Shown here: one piece after another, positions 49,993 to 59,412 of the stretch
Layout: each line of letters starts with the position of its first letter
How positions within the stretch are numbered: the stretch's first letter is position 1
Assembly: GCA_965261085.1 (NCBI GenBank)
Contig: OZ253442.1
Coordinates: 224,001 to 288,000 of the forward strand
Direction of reading: 5' to 3'
DNA from: a bacterium
Lineage (GTDB): Bacteria; UBA8248
Length of the DNA stretch: 64,000 nucleotides
Translations under genes and position numbers: made by a program
Notes under the pieces: model-generated
The model's input: the letters and a program-made list of their open reading frames with translations, nothing else
What the model was told of the DNA's origin: nothing
Database searches by the model: none

Positions 49993-51809
49993 GAGACTGT
50001 GAAAGTATCGACCCTCGTAGTCTCCAGAACGGGGCTCGCTTACGCTTGCAGCCGGCAGGCCGATGGCCGGACACTGTCATCAACCAGGGGAGCAACAACA
50101 CCGCAGAACCGGGAGAGAATCGCCTCGGCGGCCGAGCAGTTCGGGGTCGCGGTCAAGTCTTCGGGGAATCGGGGTCAAGTTCACACGCCAATTGTCCCCA
50201 ACCGCTGTTTTTGCAGACAATACTCCGCAAATGCAGCTTCGCCCAACACATTCATTACCTGCTTGAAGTTGTAACCCAGCGTCATCAGGCTGAATTCGCC
50301 GCGGCACTTGCCGAGTCCGCGCATCAGAAAATGCTCCATCCCCGCCCAGCGCCTGAGTGTACCGAACGGATGCTCGACGAGTTCGCGTCGCCCGCGCATC
50401 AACGGCGCATCGGCGCTCATCTTCCTGCGATGCCGGTCCACCACGTCCTCATGCTCCCAGCGCTGTATCCTGCGCGTCGATCTCGACTTCGCCAGGCATC
50501 GACCCGACAACGAACAATCCCGACAAACAGCCGCCGTCCCGCGATAAATGAAATACAACTTGCCCTTGTTGATTGCCGAGCCGCCTCTTGCCAGCCGCTC
50601 TCCGGCCGGACAGACATACGTGTCATCCTGCGCATCGTAACGGAAATCATCGGCGCCGAATCGCCCGTCCCTGCCCTTGCGGACCGCATGGTCCGGTATC
50701 GAAACATACGCCTCCATGCCCTTCTCTTCGCAACTCTTCAACCCGGCACCGTTGAAATAGCCCGAATCCGCCAGACCCACCAGGCCTTTGCTGCCCATGG
50801 CTTCGCGGGACTTCGTCATCATCGGCTCCAACTGAGCGGAGTCATTGCCGTCCTGCACCACATCCTCCGCGACAATCAGCTTGTGCCTGTCGTCCACCGC
50901 GATTTGACAGTTGTATCCGCCCACCATCTTGCCCTTCTTTATCAGCAACCGCGCATCGTCATCGACCTCGGATACCTGACCCTCTCCGCTCTCCAGCAAG
51001 CGCTTTTGCAATGCCTTCTTCTTTTGTTGCCTCTCGACCAGGGCCTCGAGCTTCGACGCCAGTTCCGGATCCTCCGAACCGTCCGCATACTCTTCCGCAT
51101 CCGCCTCGTCCATCTGCCGGTGATACGCCGCAATCTGCTCGTCCAGACGCTTCAGGTATCTTTCCAGGGATACCCTGGTATGGAAGCTGTCCGGATTCGC
51201 ATCGGCCTTCAGATAAGTCCCGTCAATCGCCACCCGGGTGCCGCCCAGAAGTGAGAGTTCGCGGCACAAGAGTACGAACTCCCGGTTGACCGCCCGAAGA
51301 GCAGCCGCATTGTTCTTGCGAAAATCCGCTATCGTCTTGTAGCTCGGCGACGCACCCTGGCACAGCCAGATCACTTCCAGATTGCGCTGCGTCTCGGCTT
51401 CGAGCCGACGCGAACTCCGTACCCGGTGCTGGTAGCCGTACAGATACAGCTTCAGCAGCAGCGCCGGGTCGAACGCCGGCTGACCGGCGCCGCAGTTCGC
51501 TTCGGCATGCTCGAATCCCAGCGCCTGCAGATCCAGCGTGCCGACGAACGCCTCGATCGCGCGCACCGCATTGTGCTCGGACACGTAGTCGTCCAGACAC
51601 GGCGGAAGTAGCATCATCTGGCTTCGGGACTGCACCTCCTGATAACGTCTCTCGGACATGGTGGTGATCCTTTATCTGGTTGTCTCACTCGCTGATAATG
51701 ATAGCATCTACAGACAATCCGGCCTTCATTCGCCATCGTCTCTCACCTGACTCGTTGAATATCCCCTCATCGAGTCGCTCGACGCTCGTGGGAATACTTT
51801 CACAGTCTC
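49993..51809 (-). mobile_element. IS1182-family insertion sequence
   Basis: TIRs GAGACTGTGAAAGTAT at 49993-50008 and 51794-51809 (extendable by 2 bp); no TSD and non-matching flanks. Confidence 0.88.
50181..51659 (-). CDS. IS1182-family transposase
   Basis: P..LLKLYLYGY....SSRRLE, P.YKTIADFR, AIDGT..KA, GYN.Q.AVD, ADSGY and VEHPFGTL motifs. Confidence 0.95.
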   Translation of the reverse strand: MSERRYQEVQSRSQMMLLPPCLDDYVSEHNAVRAIEAFVGTLDLQALGFEHAEANCGAGQPAFDPALLLKLYLYGYQHRVRSSRRLEAETQRNLEVIWLCQGASPSYKTIADFRKNNAAALRAVNREFVLLCRELSLLGGTRVAIDGTYLKADANPDSFHTRVSLERYLKRLDEQIAAYHRQMDEADAEEYADGSEDPELASKLEALVERQQKKKALQKRLLESGEGQVSEVDDDARLLIKKGKMVGGYNCQIAVDDRHKLIVAEDVVQDGNDSAQLEPMMTKSREAMGSKGLVGLADSGYFNGAGLKSCEEKGMEAYVSIPDHAVRKGRDGRFGADDFRYDAQDDTYVCPAGERLARGGSAINKGKLYFIYRGTAAVCRDCSLSGRCLAKSRSTRRIQRWEHEDVVDRHRRKMSADAPLMRGRRELVEHPFGTLRRWAGMEHFLMRGLGKCRGEFSLMTLGYNFKQVMNVLGEAAFAEYCLQKQRLGTIGV

Positions 51810-52101
51810 AGATCGCCTCTGCATCCGAGGCGTCGTTTTTCTGACGTTTAACGTACGCCTTCACATATCGCGGTGGCATGATCTTCACCTCATGGCCGAT
51901 TTCGCCAATCTCGCGGCCCCAATAGTGCGCGTTCCCGCATGCCTCCATCGCGACCCGGCACTGCGGCTGCGATTCTAGAAAACCCAACACCTTCCCCCGC
52001 GTCAGCTTCTTGCGGAACGCGACCGACCCGTCAGGGTTCGCACCGTGAAGTTGAAAACCGTGTTTCGCCAAGTCGATGCCGATGATGTGGACCTGTTTCA
52101 T
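51808..52101 (-). pseudogene. Truncated IS110/IS1111-family recombinase, interrupted by IS1182
   Basis: IGIDLAK, MEAC..AHYWGR and KNDASDAEAI, then the IS1182 end; paralog of 55807-56832. Confidence 0.88.
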
Positions 52102-52310
52102 CTCGCTCCTCCCGCAGGGCGGCAGACCATGTCAACACGCCCAGTTTGATGGCGCCGGGAGGGGCGCAGAAATGCCCCCTCCTACCCGGCCACAAATTTT
52201 GTAAGCATTCGGTCGAGGGGTGATGGTGTCCGCGTAGCTCATTCCGGATAATCGAAGAGATTCCCGTAAGGTGCTGGTAACATCTTCCGGCATGTGGTAA
52301 TCATGTCGGC

Positions 52311-54629
52311 ATGAAGATTTGCACGGAAGCTGTCGAGACGGAGCCGGCGTTGGTCGAGAGGCCGGATGAGCCATGGCCTCATCCCCCCGAGTTGTTCACA
52401 ACCGGAGAGGCGTACTGGCGTTCGCTGTACGAGCGCGAGCGTGCGCGCGCGGAGGCGGCGGAAGCGCGCTGCGAGGAGTTGCGGTGGAAGGAGGTGGATA
52501 CGCGCACGCGGGCGGGTTCGCTGAAGTGGTATCTCGACAACTGCCGGAGGAAGCTTGCCGCGAGCGTCGGGAAGTTGAAGGAAGTCCGCCGCGCGGCGAA
52601 GAAGGACATCCTGGCGCTCGAGGCGGAAGTGGCTCGACAGGAGAAGCTTCTTCGCAAAGCCGGTGTCGAGCCGGGCAAGCGCAGCCCGCTCGCGTCGCTG
52701 CGCAAAGAGGTGGCCCGGTTGCGCAAGGCTCTCTCGGGCGCGTTGCCTCCGGGGGAGGCCGCGCGGCTGCGCAGAGTCGTGGAGAAGCGGGAGAATACGA
52801 TCGAGTCTCTGCGCAAGGAGATTGAGGGGCGGGAGGAGGCGCTCGCCCGGCTGAAGAATCGGCTGGCCTGGGAGAAGCTGGAGACGAAGTCTCAGAAGAA
52901 GACGGTCCAGTGGCGTGACGAGGAGGTCATCCGGCTCTGCGGGAAGTTGCGGGAATTGCGTGACGATTTGCGGGTCTCCCTCAGGGCCGCGGACGTCGCG
53001 AAGGAACGGCTGAAGGAGCGGTTGTTGCGCGCGAAGGAGGCGTTGCGCTCGAGGTCGCCGTCTCGTTCGGACGCGGAACTTCGCAAGGCCCTGGGGAGGT
53101 CGCGGCGTCAGAAGACGGCGCTCAGGTCCCTCTCCAGGGAGAACGGGCGGTTGTGCCGTGCGCTTCGCAAGTCGGAGACCCACAGGGCGCGGCTGGAGGC
53201 CGAGCTCGCGAAGCTTCGCGCCACCGGAGCGGTGCTGGCGAGAAGGCTGTTCGGGCGCGGGAGCGAACGACAGGAGAGGCCACGCTCGGAGCGCAGGCGC
53301 GGCGGGCAGCCCGGCGCCCAAGGCCATGGCCGCACCCCGCGGCCCGCGCTCGGGGAGAGGACCGAAGTTCGCAACCCGCCGGCCAGCGCGCGCGTCTGCG
53401 CCGGTTGCGGGCAGCCCTACGTGGCGAACGGCGCACGCATGTCGAGCATCGTCGAGATCGAAGTCTCGGCCTACAGGCGGGTCATACGCCGTCCGAGGTG
53501 GCGCCGGGTGTGCGCGTGCGCGTCGTCTCCCATGGAAGTGTCGGCGCCGCCTGCGCCGCGCCTGTTTGCGGGCACGTCTTACGGGACGAGCGTCTGGGCG
53601 CGCCTGCTGTTCGAGCGCTACGCCTGCTTCCGCCCACTCAACCGGGTCGCCGCGTGGCTCTCCGACCAGGGACTTCCGGTCTCCGCGGGCACGCTGGGCG
53701 ACAGCACACACCGCTTCACGCCGCTGTTCGAGCCGCTGGCCCGGGCGATCCTCGCCCGCCAGAACGAGGCGGCGGTGCGCCATGGGGACGAGACGACGTG
53801 GCGCGTACAGTCGCTTCGCGAGCAAGGACGCTCGAGCCGCGCCTGGCTGTGGGCCTCGGTAAGCACAGACTCCGTCTACTTCCACGTCGACCCCTCGAGG
53901 AGCGCCGATGTCGCGATGAAGCTGTTCGGCGCGGCCGGCCCCCATACAGTCATCGTCTGCGACCGCTACAGCGCCTACAAGAAGCTGGCGCGCGAACTCG
54001 ACGGCGCCGTGAGTCTTGGCTTCTGCTGGAGCCACGTTCGGCGCGATTATATCCACTGCGCCGCCGGCGATGCGCGGCTGACGTCGTGGTGTGAGAGATG
54101 GATCGGGCGGATTGCGCTGCTCTACCGCCTGAACGAGGCGCGCCTGGCCCGTTACGACTCAGGCTTCGAACGCCAGGACGCGGCGTTCGAAGCGGCGCAG
54201 GCCGCGCTCAAGAAGGCGCTCGATAGCCTGTTCGCGCAGGCCCGACGGGAACTGTCGGCCCTGCCGGCGCAGGTGCGCGAGGGCAAGGCGCTTCGCTCAC
54301 TGCTGAACCACCGCGAAGGGCTGAGCGTCTTCGTCGAGCGCCCCTCGGTGCCAATGGATAATAACGCCGTCGAGCGCGCGCTTAGGGGACCGGTGATCGG
54401 GAGGCGGCTCTCGTTCGGCTCCGTGAGTGAGGCCGGCGCCAGGTTCTCGGCGATGATGTACTCGGTCCTCGGCACCCTCGCGTCGAACGGCATCGACCCG
54501 CTCCGCTGGCTGGAGGCATGGCTCACGGCCTGCGCGGAGAACGGCGACCGGGCGCCCGGGGACCTCTCCGCGTGGCTGCCCTGGTCGATGAATGAGGAGC
54601 GCAGGCGCGCCCTCATGGCGCCGGGATGA
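52311..54629 (+). CDS. IS66-family transposase TnpC with a long coiled-coil N-terminus
   Basis: LFGRGSE, GGQPG..GHGR, C..C, HGDETTW.V, CDRYSAY, CWSHVRR and DNN..ERALR motifs. Confidence 0.93.
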   Translation: MKICTEAVETEPALVERPDEPWPHPPELFTTGEAYWRSLYERERARAEAAEARCEELRWKEVDTRTRAGSLKWYLDNCRRKLAASVGKLKEVRRAAKKDILALEAEVARQEKLLRKAGVEPGKRSPLASLRKEVARLRKALSGALPPGEAARLRRVVEKRENTIESLRKEIEGREEALARLKNRLAWEKLETKSQKKTVQWRDEEVIRLCGKLRELRDDLRVSLRAADVAKERLKERLLRAKEALRSRSPSRSDAELRKALGRSRRQKTALRSLSRENGRLCRALRKSETHRARLEAELAKLRATGAVLARRLFGRGSERQERPRSERRRGGQPGAQGHGRTPRPALGERTEVRNPPASARVCAGCGQPYVANGARMSSIVEIEVSAYRRVIRRPRWRRVCACASSPMEVSAPPAPRLFAGTSYGTSVWARLLFERYACFRPLNRVAAWLSDQGLPVSAGTLGDSTHRFTPLFEPLARAILARQNEAAVRHGDETTWRVQSLREQGRSSRAWLWASVSTDSVYFHVDPSRSADVAMKLFGAAGPHTVIVCDRYSAYKKLARELDGAVSLGFCWSHVRRDYIHCAAGDARLTSWCERWIGRIALLYRLNEARLARYDSGFERQDAAFEAAQAALKKALDSLFAQARRELSALPAQVREGKALRSLLNHREGLSVFVERPSVPMDNNAVERALRGPVIGRRLSFGSVSEAGARFSAMMYSVLGTLASNGIDPLRWLEAWLTACAENGDRAPGDLSAWLPWSMNEERRRALMAPG

Positions 54630-54633
54630 CGCC

Positions 54634-55506
54634 GTGACCGAGTGCCGCTACTACGGGCGCGACTTCACGACGGAAGAGATGGCGCTGCTGCGCGCGCTGA
54701 TCGCAGGCTCTCCTGCGCTCAACCGCCATGCGCTCTCGAAGGAGTTCTGCCGCCGCATCGGCTGGTACAAGCCCGACGGCGGACTCAAGGACATGATGGC
54801 ACGGGTGACCATGCTCGCCATGGACAAGGACGGCCTGATCACGCTCCCCCCGCCGATGCGGCCACGCCACGCGGCTCGGCCAATCGTCTTCGGACCCGAC
54901 ACCGAAGCGCCTCTCATCCCGTCGCCGACCACCCTCGATGAGGTCCGCCCCATCGGGATGCGCATCGTCGTGCGCGGAACCCGCGAGGGCCAGCTCTGGA
55001 ACGAGTTCGTCGCCCGCTACCACTACCTCGGTTACAAGACCCTCGTCGGCGCACAGATGCGCTACGCCGTCCACGACCGCGACGGCAGGCCCCTCGCCAT
55101 GCTCGGCTTCTCCACCGCCGCGTGGAAGCTCGCCCCGCGCGACAGCTTCATCGGCTGGACGCCCAAGCTGCGTGAGAAGAACCTCCCCTTCGTGGTCGAC
55201 AACCCGAGGTTCCTCATCCTGCCATGGATCAAAATCCCCAACCTCGGCTCGCACCTCCTCGCCATCATCCGCAGGCGCCTGCCCGGGGACTGGACCGAAC
55301 GCTATGGCGTCACCCCCGTGCTCGTCGAGACCTTCGTCGAAACGCCCCGCTACACCGGAGCCGTCTACAGGGCATCGGGATGGATTCCCGTTGGAACCAC
55401 CCAGGGACGAGGGCGCTACGACAGGGACAGACGCTACGACAAGCCCAAAAAGGACGTCTGGCTAAGGCCGCTCCGCAGCAACTGGAAGCAAGTCCTCAGC
55501 CGCTGA
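54634..55506 (+). CDS. DUF4338 (DruA-like) protein
   Basis: YYGRDF, WN.....YHYLGY..LVGAQMRY, AAWKLAPRD.FIGW, RFLILPW....NLGS, ETFVE...G..YRASGW..VG.T.GRG motifs. Confidence 0.88.
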   Translation: MTECRYYGRDFTTEEMALLRALIAGSPALNRHALSKEFCRRIGWYKPDGGLKDMMARVTMLAMDKDGLITLPPPMRPRHAARPIVFGPDTEAPLIPSPTTLDEVRPIGMRIVVRGTREGQLWNEFVARYHYLGYKTLVGAQMRYAVHDRDGRPLAMLGFSTAAWKLAPRDSFIGWTPKLREKNLPFVVDNPRFLILPWIKIPNLGSHLLAIIRRRLPGDWTERYGVTPVLVETFVETPRYTGAVYRASGWIPVGTTQGRGRYDRDRRYDKPKKDVWLRPLRSNWKQVLSR

Positions 55507-55550
55507 AACAAACCCCATCACCCCTCGACCGAATGTGTATGGACGCGCCC

Positions 55551-55806
55551 CAAAATGCAAGCTTTTTCTTCGGACAGTTCGGCGCAATGTGGTCAGGCGC
55601 AGTCGTGTATTCGGCCTCTAGATTGCGGCGTTTCCCTCTTGCCACGGGCCCGTATGGAGATGCGCGGATCGGGTCCGAATCGCTTACGCGAGCTTGAAAG
55701 CTCTCCATTCAGGTCCTGGTTTTCCCGATCCCGTCTCATTGACCGTATGCCCCTTACCTGTCCTCCGACCTGCTCACATTCCCGGCATTATCCGCTCGCC
55801 TGCCGC
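55551..55806 (-). ncRNA. Predicted bridge/seek RNA region of the IS1111-type element
   Basis: Non-coding end downstream of the recombinase. Stem GGATCGGG/CCCGATCC encloses target matches CTGAATG and GTAAGC; a second loop carries the donor-junction match ATACACGA. Confidence 0.75.
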
Positions 55807-56832
55807 TCAGGCGGCCGGCACCGGCTCCTTGTAGACCTCTTTTTTCGTCATCAGCGCCCAGGCGATGCGCGCCATCCTGTTGGCCAGCGCCACCGCGACC
55901 AGCATACGCGGCTTTCGCGCCAGCATCCGGGCCAGCCATGAGCCCGGCGGAGCGCCGCGCCGGACCGCCCAGCGCACCACCGTCATCGCGCCTATGATCA
56001 ACAACCGCCTGACGTCGCGCTGGCCCATCTTCGATATCCTGCCCAGCCGGGGCTTGCCACCGGTGGAGTGCTGCCGCGGGACGAGCCCGAGCCAGGCGGA
56101 GAAGTCGCGACCGCGCCGGAAGCTTTCCATCGGCGGCGCGAAGGCCTGGATCGCCATCGCCCCGATCGCCCCGATCCCCGGTATGCTCATCAGGCGCCTC
56201 GCCTCCTCGTCTTGGCGCGCACTCGCGAGAAGTTGCCTCTCCAACTCCCCGATCTTCGCATTGAGGCCGGCGATCTGATCGAGCAGAACCCCGCCCAGAT
56301 CGCGGACCGCCTCGGGCAGGCCCAAGCCCGGATCTGCAACGGCCGACGCCAGCCGCGCGACATGGGCGGGACCCTGGGGAGCAACGACGCCGAACTCCGC
56401 CAGATGGCCGCGCAGCGCGTTGATCGTCTGGGTGCGCTGTCGCACCAGCAAATCGCGCGTGCGGAACAGCATCCCTCGGGCCTGCTGCTCTTCAGTCTTC
56501 ACGGCCACGAAGTGCATGGTCGGGCGAGAGGCCGACTCGCAGATCGCCTCCGCATCAGCCTCGTCGTTCTTGTGGCGCTTGACGAAGGGTTTCACGTAGA
56601 TCGGCGGGATAAGCTTCACCTCATGGCCGAGCTTGCCGATCTCACGCCCCCAGTAGTGCGCGCTCGCACATGCCTCCATCGCCACCAGGCACCGCGGCTG
56701 CGAAGCCAGAAAGCCCAACACCTTCGCCCTGGTAAGCTTCTTCCGGAACGCGACCGATCCGTCCGGGCGCGTGCCGTGGAGTTGAAAGCTCTGTTTTGCC
56801 AGATCGATGCCGATGATGTGAACCTGTTCCAT
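55807..56832 (-). CDS. IS110-family DEDD recombinase/transposase (341 aa)
   Basis: GIDLAK, MEAC, KNDEADA (DEDD) and GLVP.QHSTGGK (catalytic Ser) motifs; start trimmed to ATG 56832. Confidence 0.95.
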   Translation of the reverse strand: MEQVHIIGIDLAKQSFQLHGTRPDGSVAFRKKLTRAKVLGFLASQPRCLVAMEACASAHYWGREIGKLGHEVKLIPPIYVKPFVKRHKNDEADAEAICESASRPTMHFVAVKTEEQQARGMLFRTRDLLVRQRTQTINALRGHLAEFGVVAPQGPAHVARLASAVADPGLGLPEAVRDLGGVLLDQIAGLNAKIGELERQLLASARQDEEARRLMSIPGIGAIGAMAIQAFAPPMESFRRGRDFSAWLGLVPRQHSTGGKPRLGRISKMGQRDVRRLLIIGAMTVVRWAVRRGAPPGSWLARMLARKPRMLVAVALANRMARIAWALMTKKEVYKEPVPAA

Positions 56833-57460
56833 GGATTCCCCTCCTGCAGGGCGGTAACGACACCACCTCACCACAGTGTGATGCCTTCGGGAGGGCGCGT
56901 CCATCCCATCGCTTACCAAATTTTCGGACACATATACACCAGGATGCGCAGAGGTTTTAATGAATCCGCTTTCGGTTTGATTACGGCCTGCGGCAGGAGA
57001 ATTCCAACAGGTATGGACAGGTCTAATATCTGACATAATATCAATAGGTTATATGGATTCTGCCGACGATGAAAAAGGCCCGAAACATCCAATGCACCTG
57101 ATTTATCGAAAAACCCCGTGAATTTATCGATATTTATCGTATTTTTCAGAAATTATTATTTGCATAAAATGGCGTTTCATCACTTCCGAACGAGCCCAGC
57201 CATCTTGTTCCACTTCGAACCGAAAAGCATCCCCGCTTCGTCGTCGCCTCACGCTTGGTAGTAACGATCATCCTCTTCACTCCACCTCGGAGTCACCCGG
57301 AATCAGAACCGGCGAAAGCGCCGCTTCGGGTGAGCGCGCCATTCCAGATTCCAGGATTTCACGCTCACGGCAAATGCGGTGTAGAACCCGACCAAGCAGG
57401 GCTGTTGAAAAAGTCCTGATTTCGTGCTTTGGCGAATGGTACCAACCGGGCAAGGGTTCC

Positions 57461-57543
57461 GTAGGGACAGGCCCCCGTGCCTGTCCGAGGTCGCTACGAG
57501 GCGGTGCGGCTTTGTTCGTCATTCCGGCGAAAGCCGGAATGAC
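57461..57543. repeat. REP-like palindromes
   Basis: GTAGGGACAGGCCCCCGTGCCTGTCC (GTAG-type hairpin) and GTCATTCCGGCGAAAGCCGGAATGAC. Confidence 0.55.
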
Positions 57544-57727
57544 GGCGGTGGTCAATTCCGAGCGAGGAGGGGTTTTTCCAACTACCACGGGGAGCGAGCG
57601 TTTGCCGACCGATGAAAGAGGGTCAGCGAAAATTGGGTCGTGGATTTAGGCTTAGAAAAAAAGGCTACGAGAAATTCAGGAATGCCGAGGTGCCTGCCCG
57701 TATGAAAGTGGCGGAGAGGGTCGACCT

Positions 57728-57820
57728 GTGACTGATCAGACAGGACTAAGCAGGTCAGCAGCAGAAGGCGTGGTCGATGCCGCGTTCAAGACGGTTGGCG
57801 AGGCCCTTGCAAACGATCAG
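57728..57820 (+). pseudogene. HU-like DNA-binding protein N-terminal fragment
   Basis: DQTGLSRSAAEGVVDAAFKTVGEALAND resembles HU helices 1-2; the G.FG.F beta arm is absent. Confidence 0.45.
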
Positions 57821-57913
57821 TCGCTTTTGGTCAAGCCGGGTTCGAAAGGTACAATAGTCAACCCCATGTGTGTGGGATGGGGTGCGTCCACGCCTTACAA
57901 AGAGATTGCCAGA

Positions 57914-59412
57914 ATGGAAATCGAACAAAAACACGCAGTCAAATTGGAAATACCCAAAATAGAAAAATCAAATTTATCGCGTGCCGTCGATTACTACCGG
58001 AAAATATCTTACCATCGAGGGTTGGTTCTCGAGGGAATAAGGCTCTGTGCGATGAGGAATCGCGGATTTTGGCACGGAATATACGAAGAGCTATTACAGG
58101 AGAAACGGAGACCGGTTAAACGAGAAGTGGTCGAGGAGCGCATACGCAATATCCAGAAAGAAAGAGGTGAGGCGGCGTATCAGCAGGTTTTACGGGAGTA
58201 CAACAACCAACGGATCGAAGCAGGTCTAGATCCGGCAAAGGATGGAGGTCCCTTCTGGGTTGCACATGAGGTGAAGTCATCCATGGAGCAGAGATTGGTA
58301 GTGCCAATAACGTTTTTCAGCTGGGAAATATACATGTGTCTATTGTACGTAGAAATTGAAGCGTACAGATCGCATACGCAAGGATTCCAGAGTTAGGAAA
58401 TAAGGGGATAGACAAGTTTTTCAGGAAGAATCGGCGTATTTTAGGTGCATTGAAAGAATACAGGGATAAAGTGCTTCACCCGCAGGCAAAGGTAAGTGAG
58501 GAACAAGTAGCCGACCGGTTCTTCGATTTGTTGGAGAACACCAGCAACAACGAAATAGATTTGGTTTTTACAATACAACGGATGATTGATTGTCACATCC
58601 AAGGCGTGGGGTTGGGAATCATCCAGAGTATGGACGCAGAACTGGTTGAACTCTTAGATATACTCAAGTCGGGACAAAGACTTCCCATGAAAGGACATGA
58701 TAAGTTCGAGGTATGGATGGACCAAATTGGGTATATTACACCAAACACAAATCTGATGACGCCGGAACAGTTCGGGGGCACCACGAGGGAGGGTCAGGCG
58801 CCAAATCTCTCAATGACAAATGTGGTAGGGCTAGTTTCAAGAATGATGGAACACCGAACCAAGCGAGATGGGCCTACTGGGCAGGGACTAGAACTACCTG
58901 GAGACACCGGTTACGGACGGATGCTAATGAGGGCTTTCATTCTCATGTCCGAAGGAATGGGGCTCGTGGACACGGCGAAGTTACTAGGGTCGGAAGATCC
59001 AAGAACTTTACCGTTGTCAGAGATATGGAAGACCGTGAAAGAGGGGGCCGAACCAGAAACTCGACAGGAAGTGCAAAACCTGATGGCATTGGAACGCGTA
59101 GCGATCGCAATGATTCATGAACCGATACGGACCTACCACAAGATGGTGAAAAGGCACAGGGTTCGAGTGCCAGAGTGGATGGCACAGTCCATTCCGACGG
59201 AGAAAACATATCAGAAGCTGCGCGACTTCAGGAACGTAGTTTTTCACGTAAAGGTCGAGAAACACAGTCCGGACAAGCTTGAATGGGGATGGATACAACA
59301 CACGGCAAAGCACCCAACAATCGACATAATTCACGCCTTGCTCACGTTTTACGGATTTGGGAATGGGTTTGAGGAACTACGTGCGCGGGCGCGAGATAAC
59401 CGCGGGGTGTAA
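57914..59412 (+). CDS. Putative tandem-HEPN protein split by a frameshift near 58375-58385
   Basis: The downstream frame stays open back through RIPELGNKGIDKFFRKNRRILGA; two Rx4H motifs, RDKVLH and RNVVFH. Start uncertain. Confidence 0.55.

Follow-up and report, generated by a model that had tools for sequence, protein, structure and literature searches.

The locus considered here lies in a 64,000-nucleotide (nt) stretch of a bacterial genome of the lineage UBA8248 (assembly GCA_965261085.1, contig OZ253442.1, positions 224,001 to 288,000 of the forward strand; hereafter the window, whose own numbering is used throughout). It raises the question of whether the non-coding region at 55536–55806, next to the recombinase gene of an IS110-family insertion sequence, specifies an RNA by which that element selects its insertion site, the terminal repeat of an IS66-family element. 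A preliminary description had proposed such a bridge RNA (or seekRNA) from a handful of short matches. We assign a probability of about 0.88 to the reading that the window holds an intact, recently active IS1111-group element with a predicted bridge RNA guiding insertion into the IS66 repeat; it is family-wide covariation, and not the single locus, that makes the predicted guides convincing.

The element, its gene and its ends are placed as follows.

55536–56911, minus strand: complete IS1111-group (IS110-family) insertion sequence of 1,376 bp, its ends fixed from four identical genomic copies compared with the intact target.
55807–56832, minus strand: recombinase gene (341 amino acids) with DEDD RuvC-like and Tnp domains, recognised by Pfam and by matches to Protein Data Bank (PDB) sequences.
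56893–56911, minus strand: left end, made up of the 7-nt extension CGATGGG (56911–56905) and the left subterminal inverted repeat ATGGACGCGCCC (56904–56893).
55536–55560, minus strand: right end, made up of TTGCAT (55560–55555), the subterminal repeat GGGCGCGTCCAT (55550–55539) and the 3-nt extension ACA (55538–55536).

The element is assigned to the IS1111 group of the IS110 family because of the domains of its recombinase, its 12-bp subterminal inverted repeats (ATGGACGCGCCC and GGGCGCGTCCAT) with extensions of 7 nt and 3 nt, and the 271-nt non-coding region (55806–55536) directly downstream of the gene. These are the defining features in the published description of the group, where the family rule is given as subterminal repeats of 11–13 bp with extensions of 7 bp on the left and 3 bp on the right (Siddiquee et al., 2024; PMC11187229), and they bear out the preliminary assignment to an element with an RNA region downstream of its gene. 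The N-terminus of the recombinase matches PF01548 (DEDD_Tnp_IS110; 1.8e-15, residues 7–146) and the C-terminus PF02371 (Transposase_20; 5.6e-22), and matches to PDB sequences include the transposases of ISCro4 (9t56; 4e-14) and IS621 (8wt6; 2.1e-11). The acidic residues D10, E53, D90 and D93 fall in the motifs GIDLAK, AMEAC and KNDEADA, and alignment to ISCro4 suggests a catalytic role for them. The motif GLvPrqhsTG (G249-L-V-P252-RQHS-T257-G258) follows the C-terminal Tnp-domain pattern GL-P----S/T-G (PMC11187229), with T257-G258 at the position of the catalytic Ser-Gly and T257 as the candidate nucleophile.

Site-specific insertion is directly observed four times. The genome contains four full copies of the element, 100% identical to one another over 1,400–1,451 nt and all with open reading frames (ORFs), and in four of four the left flank is GTAAG and the right flank CATTCGGTCG, a position 5 bp inside an IS66-family terminal repeat. 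The joined flanks recreate the intact repeat found at 52201, with no target duplication. The uninterrupted target at 52201–52220 (GTAAGCATTCGGTCGAGGGG) is the sole exact match, and none of 100 shuffles yielded two matches; the target GTAAG^CATTCGG given in the preliminary description is thereby upheld. Two of the four copies fill both ends of one IS66 copy, and one lies in a variant repeat. Only two exact empty sites are left in the 4.27-Mb genome, so that four of six are occupied, which probably cripples those IS66 ends.

The predicted RNA and its loop strands have the following anatomy.

55554–55780, minus strand: predicted bridge/seek RNA body, from the RNAalifold consensus, closed by helix P1.
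55666–55731, minus strand: target-binding stem-loop, with the outer stem GGAUCGGG/CCCGAUCC and the inner hairpin GAGCU-uuca-AGCUC (55703–55690).
55706–55715, minus strand: target-loop 5' strand GACCUGAAUG (putative right-target guide), a hypervariable block complementary to the right flank.
55679–55687, minus strand: target-loop 3' strand GUAAG+CG+AU (putative left-target guide), whose five hypervariable nt equal the left flank.
55651–55658, minus strand: donor-loop 5' strand UCCAUACG, nearly invariant among the aligned relatives (alignment A1, below).
55613–55650, minus strand: donor-loop inner stems GGCC/GGCC (55650–55647 with 55616–55613) and GUGGC/GCCGC (55645–55641 with 55629–55625), from the consensus fold.
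55603–55610, minus strand: donor-loop 3' strand AUACA+CG+A, equal to the terminal 5 nt of the right end followed by the terminal 3 nt of the left end.
Target loop in the minimum-energy fold, minus strand: 5' strand ending in GACCUGAAUGG, 3' strand GCGUAAGCGAUUCGGA.
Donor loop in the minimum-energy fold, minus strand: outer stem uncertain, 5' strand UCCAUACG, 3' strand GAAUACAC(GA).

The strings on which the preliminary description relied are all present on the minus strand: GGATCGGG (55731–55724), CTGAATG (55712–55706), GAGCT-ttca-AGCTC (55703–55690), GTAAGC (55687–55682), CCCGATCC (55673–55666), CCATACG (55657–55651) and ATACACGA (55610–55603). The minimum-energy fold places them in two stem-loops, each with an internal loop. 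In the consensus fold, the target stem-loop and the inner stems of the donor loop recur, together with two more helices, GGUCA/UGACC and P1, the latter formed by AAUGUGAGC (55780–55772) and GCUUGCAUU (55562–55554). For the outer donor stem, the single-sequence fold offers GCGCA/UGCGC, which by eye is not kept in relatives, and the consensus prefers GAGA/UCUC with GGUCA/UGACC.

In the target loop, CUGAAUG (55712–55706) can pair with the top strand of CATTCGG with one G:U; an alternative is GACC^GAAUG with CATTCGGTC, leaving a bulged U. CUGAAUG lies 5' of GUAAGC around the conserved hairpin, the match to the top strand coming first, as in the IS1111-type order. The left-target guide agrees with 9 nt (GUAAGCGAU) of the left junction GTAAG|CGAT but with only 6 nt (GTAAGC) of the empty target, since the donor's CG is CA in the target. 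The GTAAGC guide of the preliminary description thus stands as a match to both junction and target, its extent being refined to the 9-nt GUAAG+CG+AU (55687–55679). In the donor loop, the 3' strand is identical to the predicted circle junction, at which the right end is joined to the left end.

Taken singly, the window locus is suggestive: its matches of 6–9 nt are only marginally above chance. In 2,000 mononucleotide shuffles of the 246-nt region, the 9-nt identity to the left junction was equalled 29 times and the 8-nt identity to the computed right-end/left-end junction 113 times, with these two and the right-flank complementarity jointly reached in 7 shuffles. By this test, the caution in the preliminary description that the matches are only 6–8 nt long was a fair one.

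Relatives supply the decisive evidence. The recombinase has thousands; one genome per species was scanned, giving 343 relatives, and the best 80 loci (75–85% protein identity; labelled L with a number) were kept. Together with the window's own element these make 81, of which 59 have recognisable ends, 22 being left out for a missing left-end or right-end motif; L050 was also left out, its right end having been mis-parsed. The end motifs of the window element are present in 58 relatives as well. The final set comprises 31 distinct non-coding regions, 45 guide/site combinations and 23 guide classes. Alignment A1 contains 23 of the 31 distinct regions, near-duplicates being omitted, and L045, which has a duplicated hairpin, is omitted both from A1 and from the 5'-guide statistics.

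Conservation in the alignment covers the stems and the majority of bases in the loops, with three short hypervariable blocks lying exactly at three loop strands: about 10 nt after AAAACCAG, 5 nt after GCUCGC, and three positions in GGCCGGA-NNNN-[C/U]GA (four variable positions counting the first core base). It is a direct observation that these three of the four loop strands change with the flanks or ends of their own element. The 5-nt block agrees with the last 5 nt of the left flank at 5/5 positions in 32 of the 45 combinations, at 4/5 in nine and at 3/5 in four; over 20 non-redundant guide/target classes it equals the left flank at 94/100 positions, against a permutation mean of 36.8 and a maximum of 61 (0/10,000 permutations reach the observed value). 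The block of about 10 nt is in each case the complement of the right flank of its own element, the match beginning at the insertion point or right beside it, with a summed complementary run of 133 (permutation mean 61.6, maximum 91; 0/10,000), and the result also holds without the core (97 vs. 40.8). The donor-loop 3' strand agrees with the outermost 5 nt of the right end followed by the outermost 3 nt of the left end at 62/64 positions over eight distinct guide/end combinations, with 1/10,000 permutations as good.

Covariation of guides with targets had been set as a check by the preliminary description, and its outcome sustains three of the matches proposed there: GTAAGC as left half plus core, CTGAATG as the partner of the right target, and ATACACGA as the circle junction, the last of these following each element's own right end plus core. 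The CCATACG segment also named there covaries with nothing and does not copy the junction; it is the nearly invariant donor-loop 5' strand.

In 56 of 58 parsed elements, the left end and the right flank begin with the same two bases (CG or TG) and, by analogy with the IS621 work (Hiraizumi et al., 2024; PMC11208158), this shared dinucleotide is a 2-nt core. Its first base (C or T) covaries in four places: in the DNA at the left end and the right flank, and in the predicted RNA at the 3' strands of the target and donor loops.

Individual comparisons give the same picture. The recombinase of L016 is 96.5–96.8% identical to those of L022 and L023, and its guides are wholly different, with targets that differ to match. 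L022 and L032 are one guide base apart (GUAAC vs. GUAAG), and the commonest flank differs likewise (GTAAC at 6/12 sites). By eye, the guide rule also applies to another thirteen distinct elements, all from other congeneric species. Each change of target is a separate event despite the shared ancestry of the relatives.

The secondary structure is also held in common. Over the 23 sequences, 98.1% of cells in the consensus structure are paired, against 28–48% with the partners slid, and seven pairs have changed on both sides, a number reached by 0/500 shuffles. P1 contributes three of these double-sided changes (99.5% of cells paired), the outer stem of the target stem-loop is 97.8% paired, and one pair of its inner hairpin shows five double changes. 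Hardly any variation is seen in the inner stems of the donor loop, where a single double change occurs (GACC/GGTC in L017).

Modelled on the published IS1111 and IS621 schemes (PMC11187229; PMC11208160; PMC11208158), the mechanism would begin with excision of the element as a circle. The right-end motif TTGCAT may, by analogy with ISEc11 and IS621, be the -35 of a junction promoter; as read from the sequence, its counterpart across the predicted junction would be CACGAT, at a 17-nt spacer. TTGCAT is kept in relatives except four (TTGCAA in L014; TTGCGT in L060, L068 and L071). The 3' non-coding region of the recombinase transcript would yield a bridge RNA of about 225 nt with two internal loops, which would bind recombinase dimers, one loop taking the joined ends and the other the IS66 repeat. 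In the target loop, CUGAAUG would pair with the top strand of CATTCGG and GUAAGC with the bottom strand of GTAAGC, so that the crossover would fall at the step from G to C, 5 bp into the IS66 terminal inverted repeat. In the donor loop, the partner of the 3' strand AUACACGA would be the bottom strand of the circle where the right end joins the left. UCCAU of the donor-loop 5' strand probably pairs with ATGGG of the left end: in the register of the target loop it faces left-end positions 3–7 (ATGGG or ATGGA), and in the IS1111-type element IS5075 (read in L101) the corresponding CUCAU faces ATGAG by eye, one compensated comparison that is the sole support for this pairing. The DEDD/Tnp recombinase would then exchange strands at the shared C, with T257 as candidate nucleophile and no duplication.

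Several observations weigh against a guiding RNA at this locus, or limit how firmly it can be argued. The relatives share ancestry, and the permutation figures overstate independence accordingly. Covariation cannot test the donor-loop 5' strand or the donor inner stems, both being almost invariant, and the single-sequence and consensus folds disagree on the outer closure of the donor loop. In the 2,000 shuffles of the window region, complementarity to the right flank is not above chance (855 shuffles with G:U allowed, 677 with Watson–Crick pairs only). On the folding check set by the preliminary description, folds of the whole region, the target loop and both loops are no more stable than those of shuffles (z = -1.16, -0.69 and -0.46), and stability is therefore not used as evidence. 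A scan of 54500–58000 against Rfam 15, which may hold no IS1111-type model, gave no match at E <= 1, and none of the listed sequencing runs holding the element is recorded as RNA. Core position 2 is a mismatch between the left-target guide and the empty target (G opposite the complement of A), and the 5' guide has one extra U compared with the perfect 9-mer GACCGAAUG of the decayed sibling L005. Finally, the four copies may not be independent insertions, as gene conversion among IS66 copies could spread one. A scan of 55400–57050 for promoters and terminators, in which a single promoter-like site turned up on the plus strand beyond the element and terminators were absent, is silent on RNA production.

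The extra U bears on the register of the guide, for the 5' guide of the window forms either 7 bp with one G:U or 9 bp with a bulge. It is possible, if rather unlikely, that the region encodes a genuine bridge RNA in another register, with GACC^GAAUG pairing over 9 bp around a bulged U and GUAAGCGAU mainly reading the integrated left junction for excision. The uninterrupted GACCGAAUG of L005 fits this, as do the longer agreement of GUAAGCGAU with the left junction (9 nt) than with the empty site (6 nt) and the GAU tail after the left-target guide, which is kept whatever the right flank. However, the 5' guides of most relatives pair bulge-free in the register of the preliminary description, a single nt separating the guide from the hairpin; left ends show no variation beyond CGAT or TGAT, which places the GAU tail beyond covariation testing; and L016 and L027 carry GAA though their left end is CGAT.

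That the element and its RNA are relics, with copies fixed and immobile and guide matches that record past activity, is distinctly unlikely. Several decayed relatives of the element in the same genome would fit such a history. Contigs of the four best DNA runs over 55200–57200 are short pieces with no circle-junction or empty-site joint, which, for contigs only, is uninformative; several of the pieces end at 56916, the IS66 terminus. Against this, the four copies are identical and intact, from which recent spread is argued.

Highly improbable is the proposal that the short matches are coincidence, or DNA-level hitch-hiking in which a flank was copied at imprecise excision, with a protein that reads the IS66 repeat and a region that is only a 3' untranslated region or terminator: it accords with the marginal single-locus matches, the right-flank complementarity at chance level, the unremarkable folds and the lack of an Rfam match or a listed RNA run, but not with three blocks that track flank or end through about 20 independent target classes against a background of unchanged intervening stems, with one block being the reverse complement of the right flank and the other in the same sense as the left flank with a hairpin between them (which a copied flank would not yield), with recombinases 96.5–96.8% identical having different targets, or with published IS1111-type experiments in which the region is required in cis or trans and is reprogrammable (PMC11187229).

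To return to the favored reading of a bridge RNA guiding insertion, the core is not shared in full by every element. The two mismatches among the 58 parsed elements are the window element (donor CG, target CA) and L045 (TG/TC); further cases are L106, L108, L109 and L120 of the same genus (all CG/CA) and IS5075 (TA/TT). The right-target guide of the window puts UG opposite CA and so is adapted to this variant of the IS66 repeat, and the congeneric L107 and L119 have ...GAACG with GUAAG or GUAUG. The right-target guide may have shifted from ...GAACG to ...GAAUG following a CG-to-CA change in the IS66 repeat, while the donor core stayed CG. In elements with unlike donor and target cores, the second core base is that of the donor at the left junction and that of the target at the right junction (in the window, 56905–56916 and 55531–55540). 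This junction pattern is seen in six lineages (the window element, L045, L106, L108/L109, L120 and IS5075), whose independence is not established. We tentatively suggest, as a doubtful reading that includes the guide shift, that the lineage is a specialised parasite of a parasite, tracking one IS66 subfamily (the one with a DruA-like gene) within one genus, and that strand exchange is polar or falls between the core positions.

Targeting of IS66 is shown for part of the clade only. A tblastn search with the window's IS66 proteins over the 80 loci matched only L022 and L032. For relatives with GTAAG or GTAAC guides elsewhere, the Pfam IS66 domain was found in 0/10 right-flank ORFs from seven loci, one of these ORFs encoding an IS630-like DDE_3 transposase. 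The preliminary claim that the guide hits the conserved GTAA terminus of IS66 elements is therefore borne out only for the IS66 subfamily of this genus, and the idea of a whole clade hunting IS66 was dropped, as these right flanks from other genomes showed no IS66 domain. The right flank at L060 (3141–4010) encodes an IS630-like transposase (helix-turn-helix and DDE_3 domains), with guide AUAAG and left flank TTAAG; a different transposon may be the target there.

Among other notable relatives, L105 (G011:C25:24392-24740), from another species of the same genus, is an element 79% identical over the non-coding region, with guides GAACUGAACG and GUAAC; it occupies the same position of a related IS66 repeat, with G rather than C as the first right-flank base. 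The elements L022–L039 (record OZ253470.1 and a close relative) have one guide class, CAUCCGAACGG/GUAAC, at 12 different sites that share GTAAC-like left flanks and a CG core, several of their right flanks matching at only 2–4 bases; in this element the left guide and core seem to dominate site choice. At L045 (2524–2818), a tandem duplication of about 23 nt has doubled the inner hairpin and the 3' guide of the target loop, so that AAUAAA and AAUAAU are both candidate left-target guides. L008 (G000:C1:1192341-1192623) and L010 (G000:C1:2514902-2514991 and downstream) are solo remnants of a related non-coding region (78% identity) that lack a recombinase gene upstream; each terminates in CCACATA beside CATTC[A/T]GTCGTCGGGTGAG, an IS66-like repeat, and one of the two has an internal deletion that removes the two loops.

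The IS66-family element that receives the insertion is itself recognisable in the window.

52201–56916, plus strand: host IS66-family element carrying the IS1111-type insertion, recognised by Pfam, terminal repeats and target duplication.

IS66 terminal repeats generally begin GTAAGC, and IS66 duplications are generally of 8 bp. The host element has a terminal repeat that starts GTAAGC, an 8-bp duplication and the transposase domain of this family. Its left terminal repeat GTAAGCATTCGGTCGAGGGG (52201–52220) is intact, its right repeat is cut after the fifth base by the IS1111-type element (55516–55535 and 56912–56916), and the duplication CAAATTTT bounds the composite at 52193–52200 and 56917–56924. 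The transposase ORF (52311–54629, plus strand) matches PF03050 (DDE_Tnp_IS66; 2.2e-56) at residues 422–711 of 772, and is overlapped by 38 nt by a 304-amino-acid ORF (54592–55506) with a DruA/DUF4338-like domain (PF14236; 1.3e-36). A Druantia-type domain inside an IS66 element was unexpected; the end of the same DruA-like ORF adjoins the related insertion in another species (L105). A truncated gene related to that of the recombinase, at 51787–52101 (minus strand), covers residues 1–105 at 75% identity and ends at TGA. It lies about 100 bp from the left end of the IS66 element, which seems to have inserted immediately upstream of this gene, and a left end of the form CGATGG...TGGACG is not recognisable there.

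Partridge and Hall reportedly described, in 2003, IS4321 and IS5075 as IS1111-type elements at a fixed position inside another transposon's terminal inverted repeat. This lifestyle is like that of the window element, although their target is the 38-bp repeat of Tn21-family (Tn3-type) transposons and not an IS66 repeat, and their recombinases are 41.5–41.8% identical to that of the window over 98% of its length. IS5075 has the same target-loop layout, with AAAACGGAA complementary to the right flank and UAUUUUC in the same sense as the left side, and, as in the window element, its left end and right flank share only the first core base. Its 3' strand matches the uninterrupted target, whereas that of the window matches the left junction.

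In IS1111-group elements, the bridge RNA or seekRNA is encoded downstream of the recombinase gene (PMC11187229; PMC11208160), and Siddiquee et al. (2024; PMC11187229) report that the region is needed in cis or trans and can be reprogrammed. The seekRNAs of ISEc11, ISPa11 and ISKpn4, as presented there, resemble the predicted RNA of the window in the downstream non-coding region, the 7-nt and 3-nt extensions, the absence of a duplication, the hairpin-centred internal loop, and a top-strand match 5' of a bottom-strand match, the two overlapping at the insertion point. Close relatives are naturally retargeted there, as here. Those elements insert into a chromosomal site, a REP sequence or an attC site, whereas the target in the window is an IS66-family terminal repeat and the window element is known from sequence alone. 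The IS621 bridge RNA (Durrant et al., 2024; PMC11208160; Hiraizumi et al., 2024; PMC11208158) likewise has target and donor loops that each read both strands, as is predicted for the window RNA, a core dinucleotide common to target and donor, and a DEDD enzyme with a Ser/Thr nucleophile. It differs in lying in the left end, whereas the window RNA is in the right end, and in having the loop strands in reverse order; the core is CT in IS621 and CG or TG here, and the subterminal repeats here are long (12 bp). An IS621-like handshake guide was sought after the right-target guide and none was recognised, the spacer base varying without relation to the donor end; instead, the conserved AU after the left-target guide matches the left end of the donor. 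ISPpu9, an IS110-family element with the small RNA gene Ssr9 downstream of its transposase, is alike in that arrangement and has extra solo copies of the RNA gene in the genome, comparable to the remnants L008 and L010, but its target, unlike that of the window element, is a REP sequence (PMC12288879).

The mechanism itself was already described in 2024, and the window locus is a clear natural example of it that leaves the picture of how IS1111 and IS621 systems work unchanged. Titles and abstract openings in the literature gave no report of an IS1111-type element in IS66 repeats, and such a target may be listed in the target tables of Siddiquee et al. or in Supplementary Table 5 of Durrant et al. 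If the events behind the junction pattern in the six lineages are independent, IS1111-type strand exchange would be polar, or would fall between core positions 1 and 2, rather than follow random resolution of a 2-nt heteroduplex; this would be a mechanistic departure from the IS621 scheme that is visible from natural insertions alone. The locus is a useful worked example, with target, donor ends, empty site and both guide loops readable within 5 kb, and it brings IS66-family terminal repeats into the range of transposon ends that IS1111-type elements attack, of which Tn21-family repeats are the known case. The roughly 20 naturally retargeted relatives are a source of scaffold and guide rules for IS1111 bridge recombinases, which are less studied than IS621.

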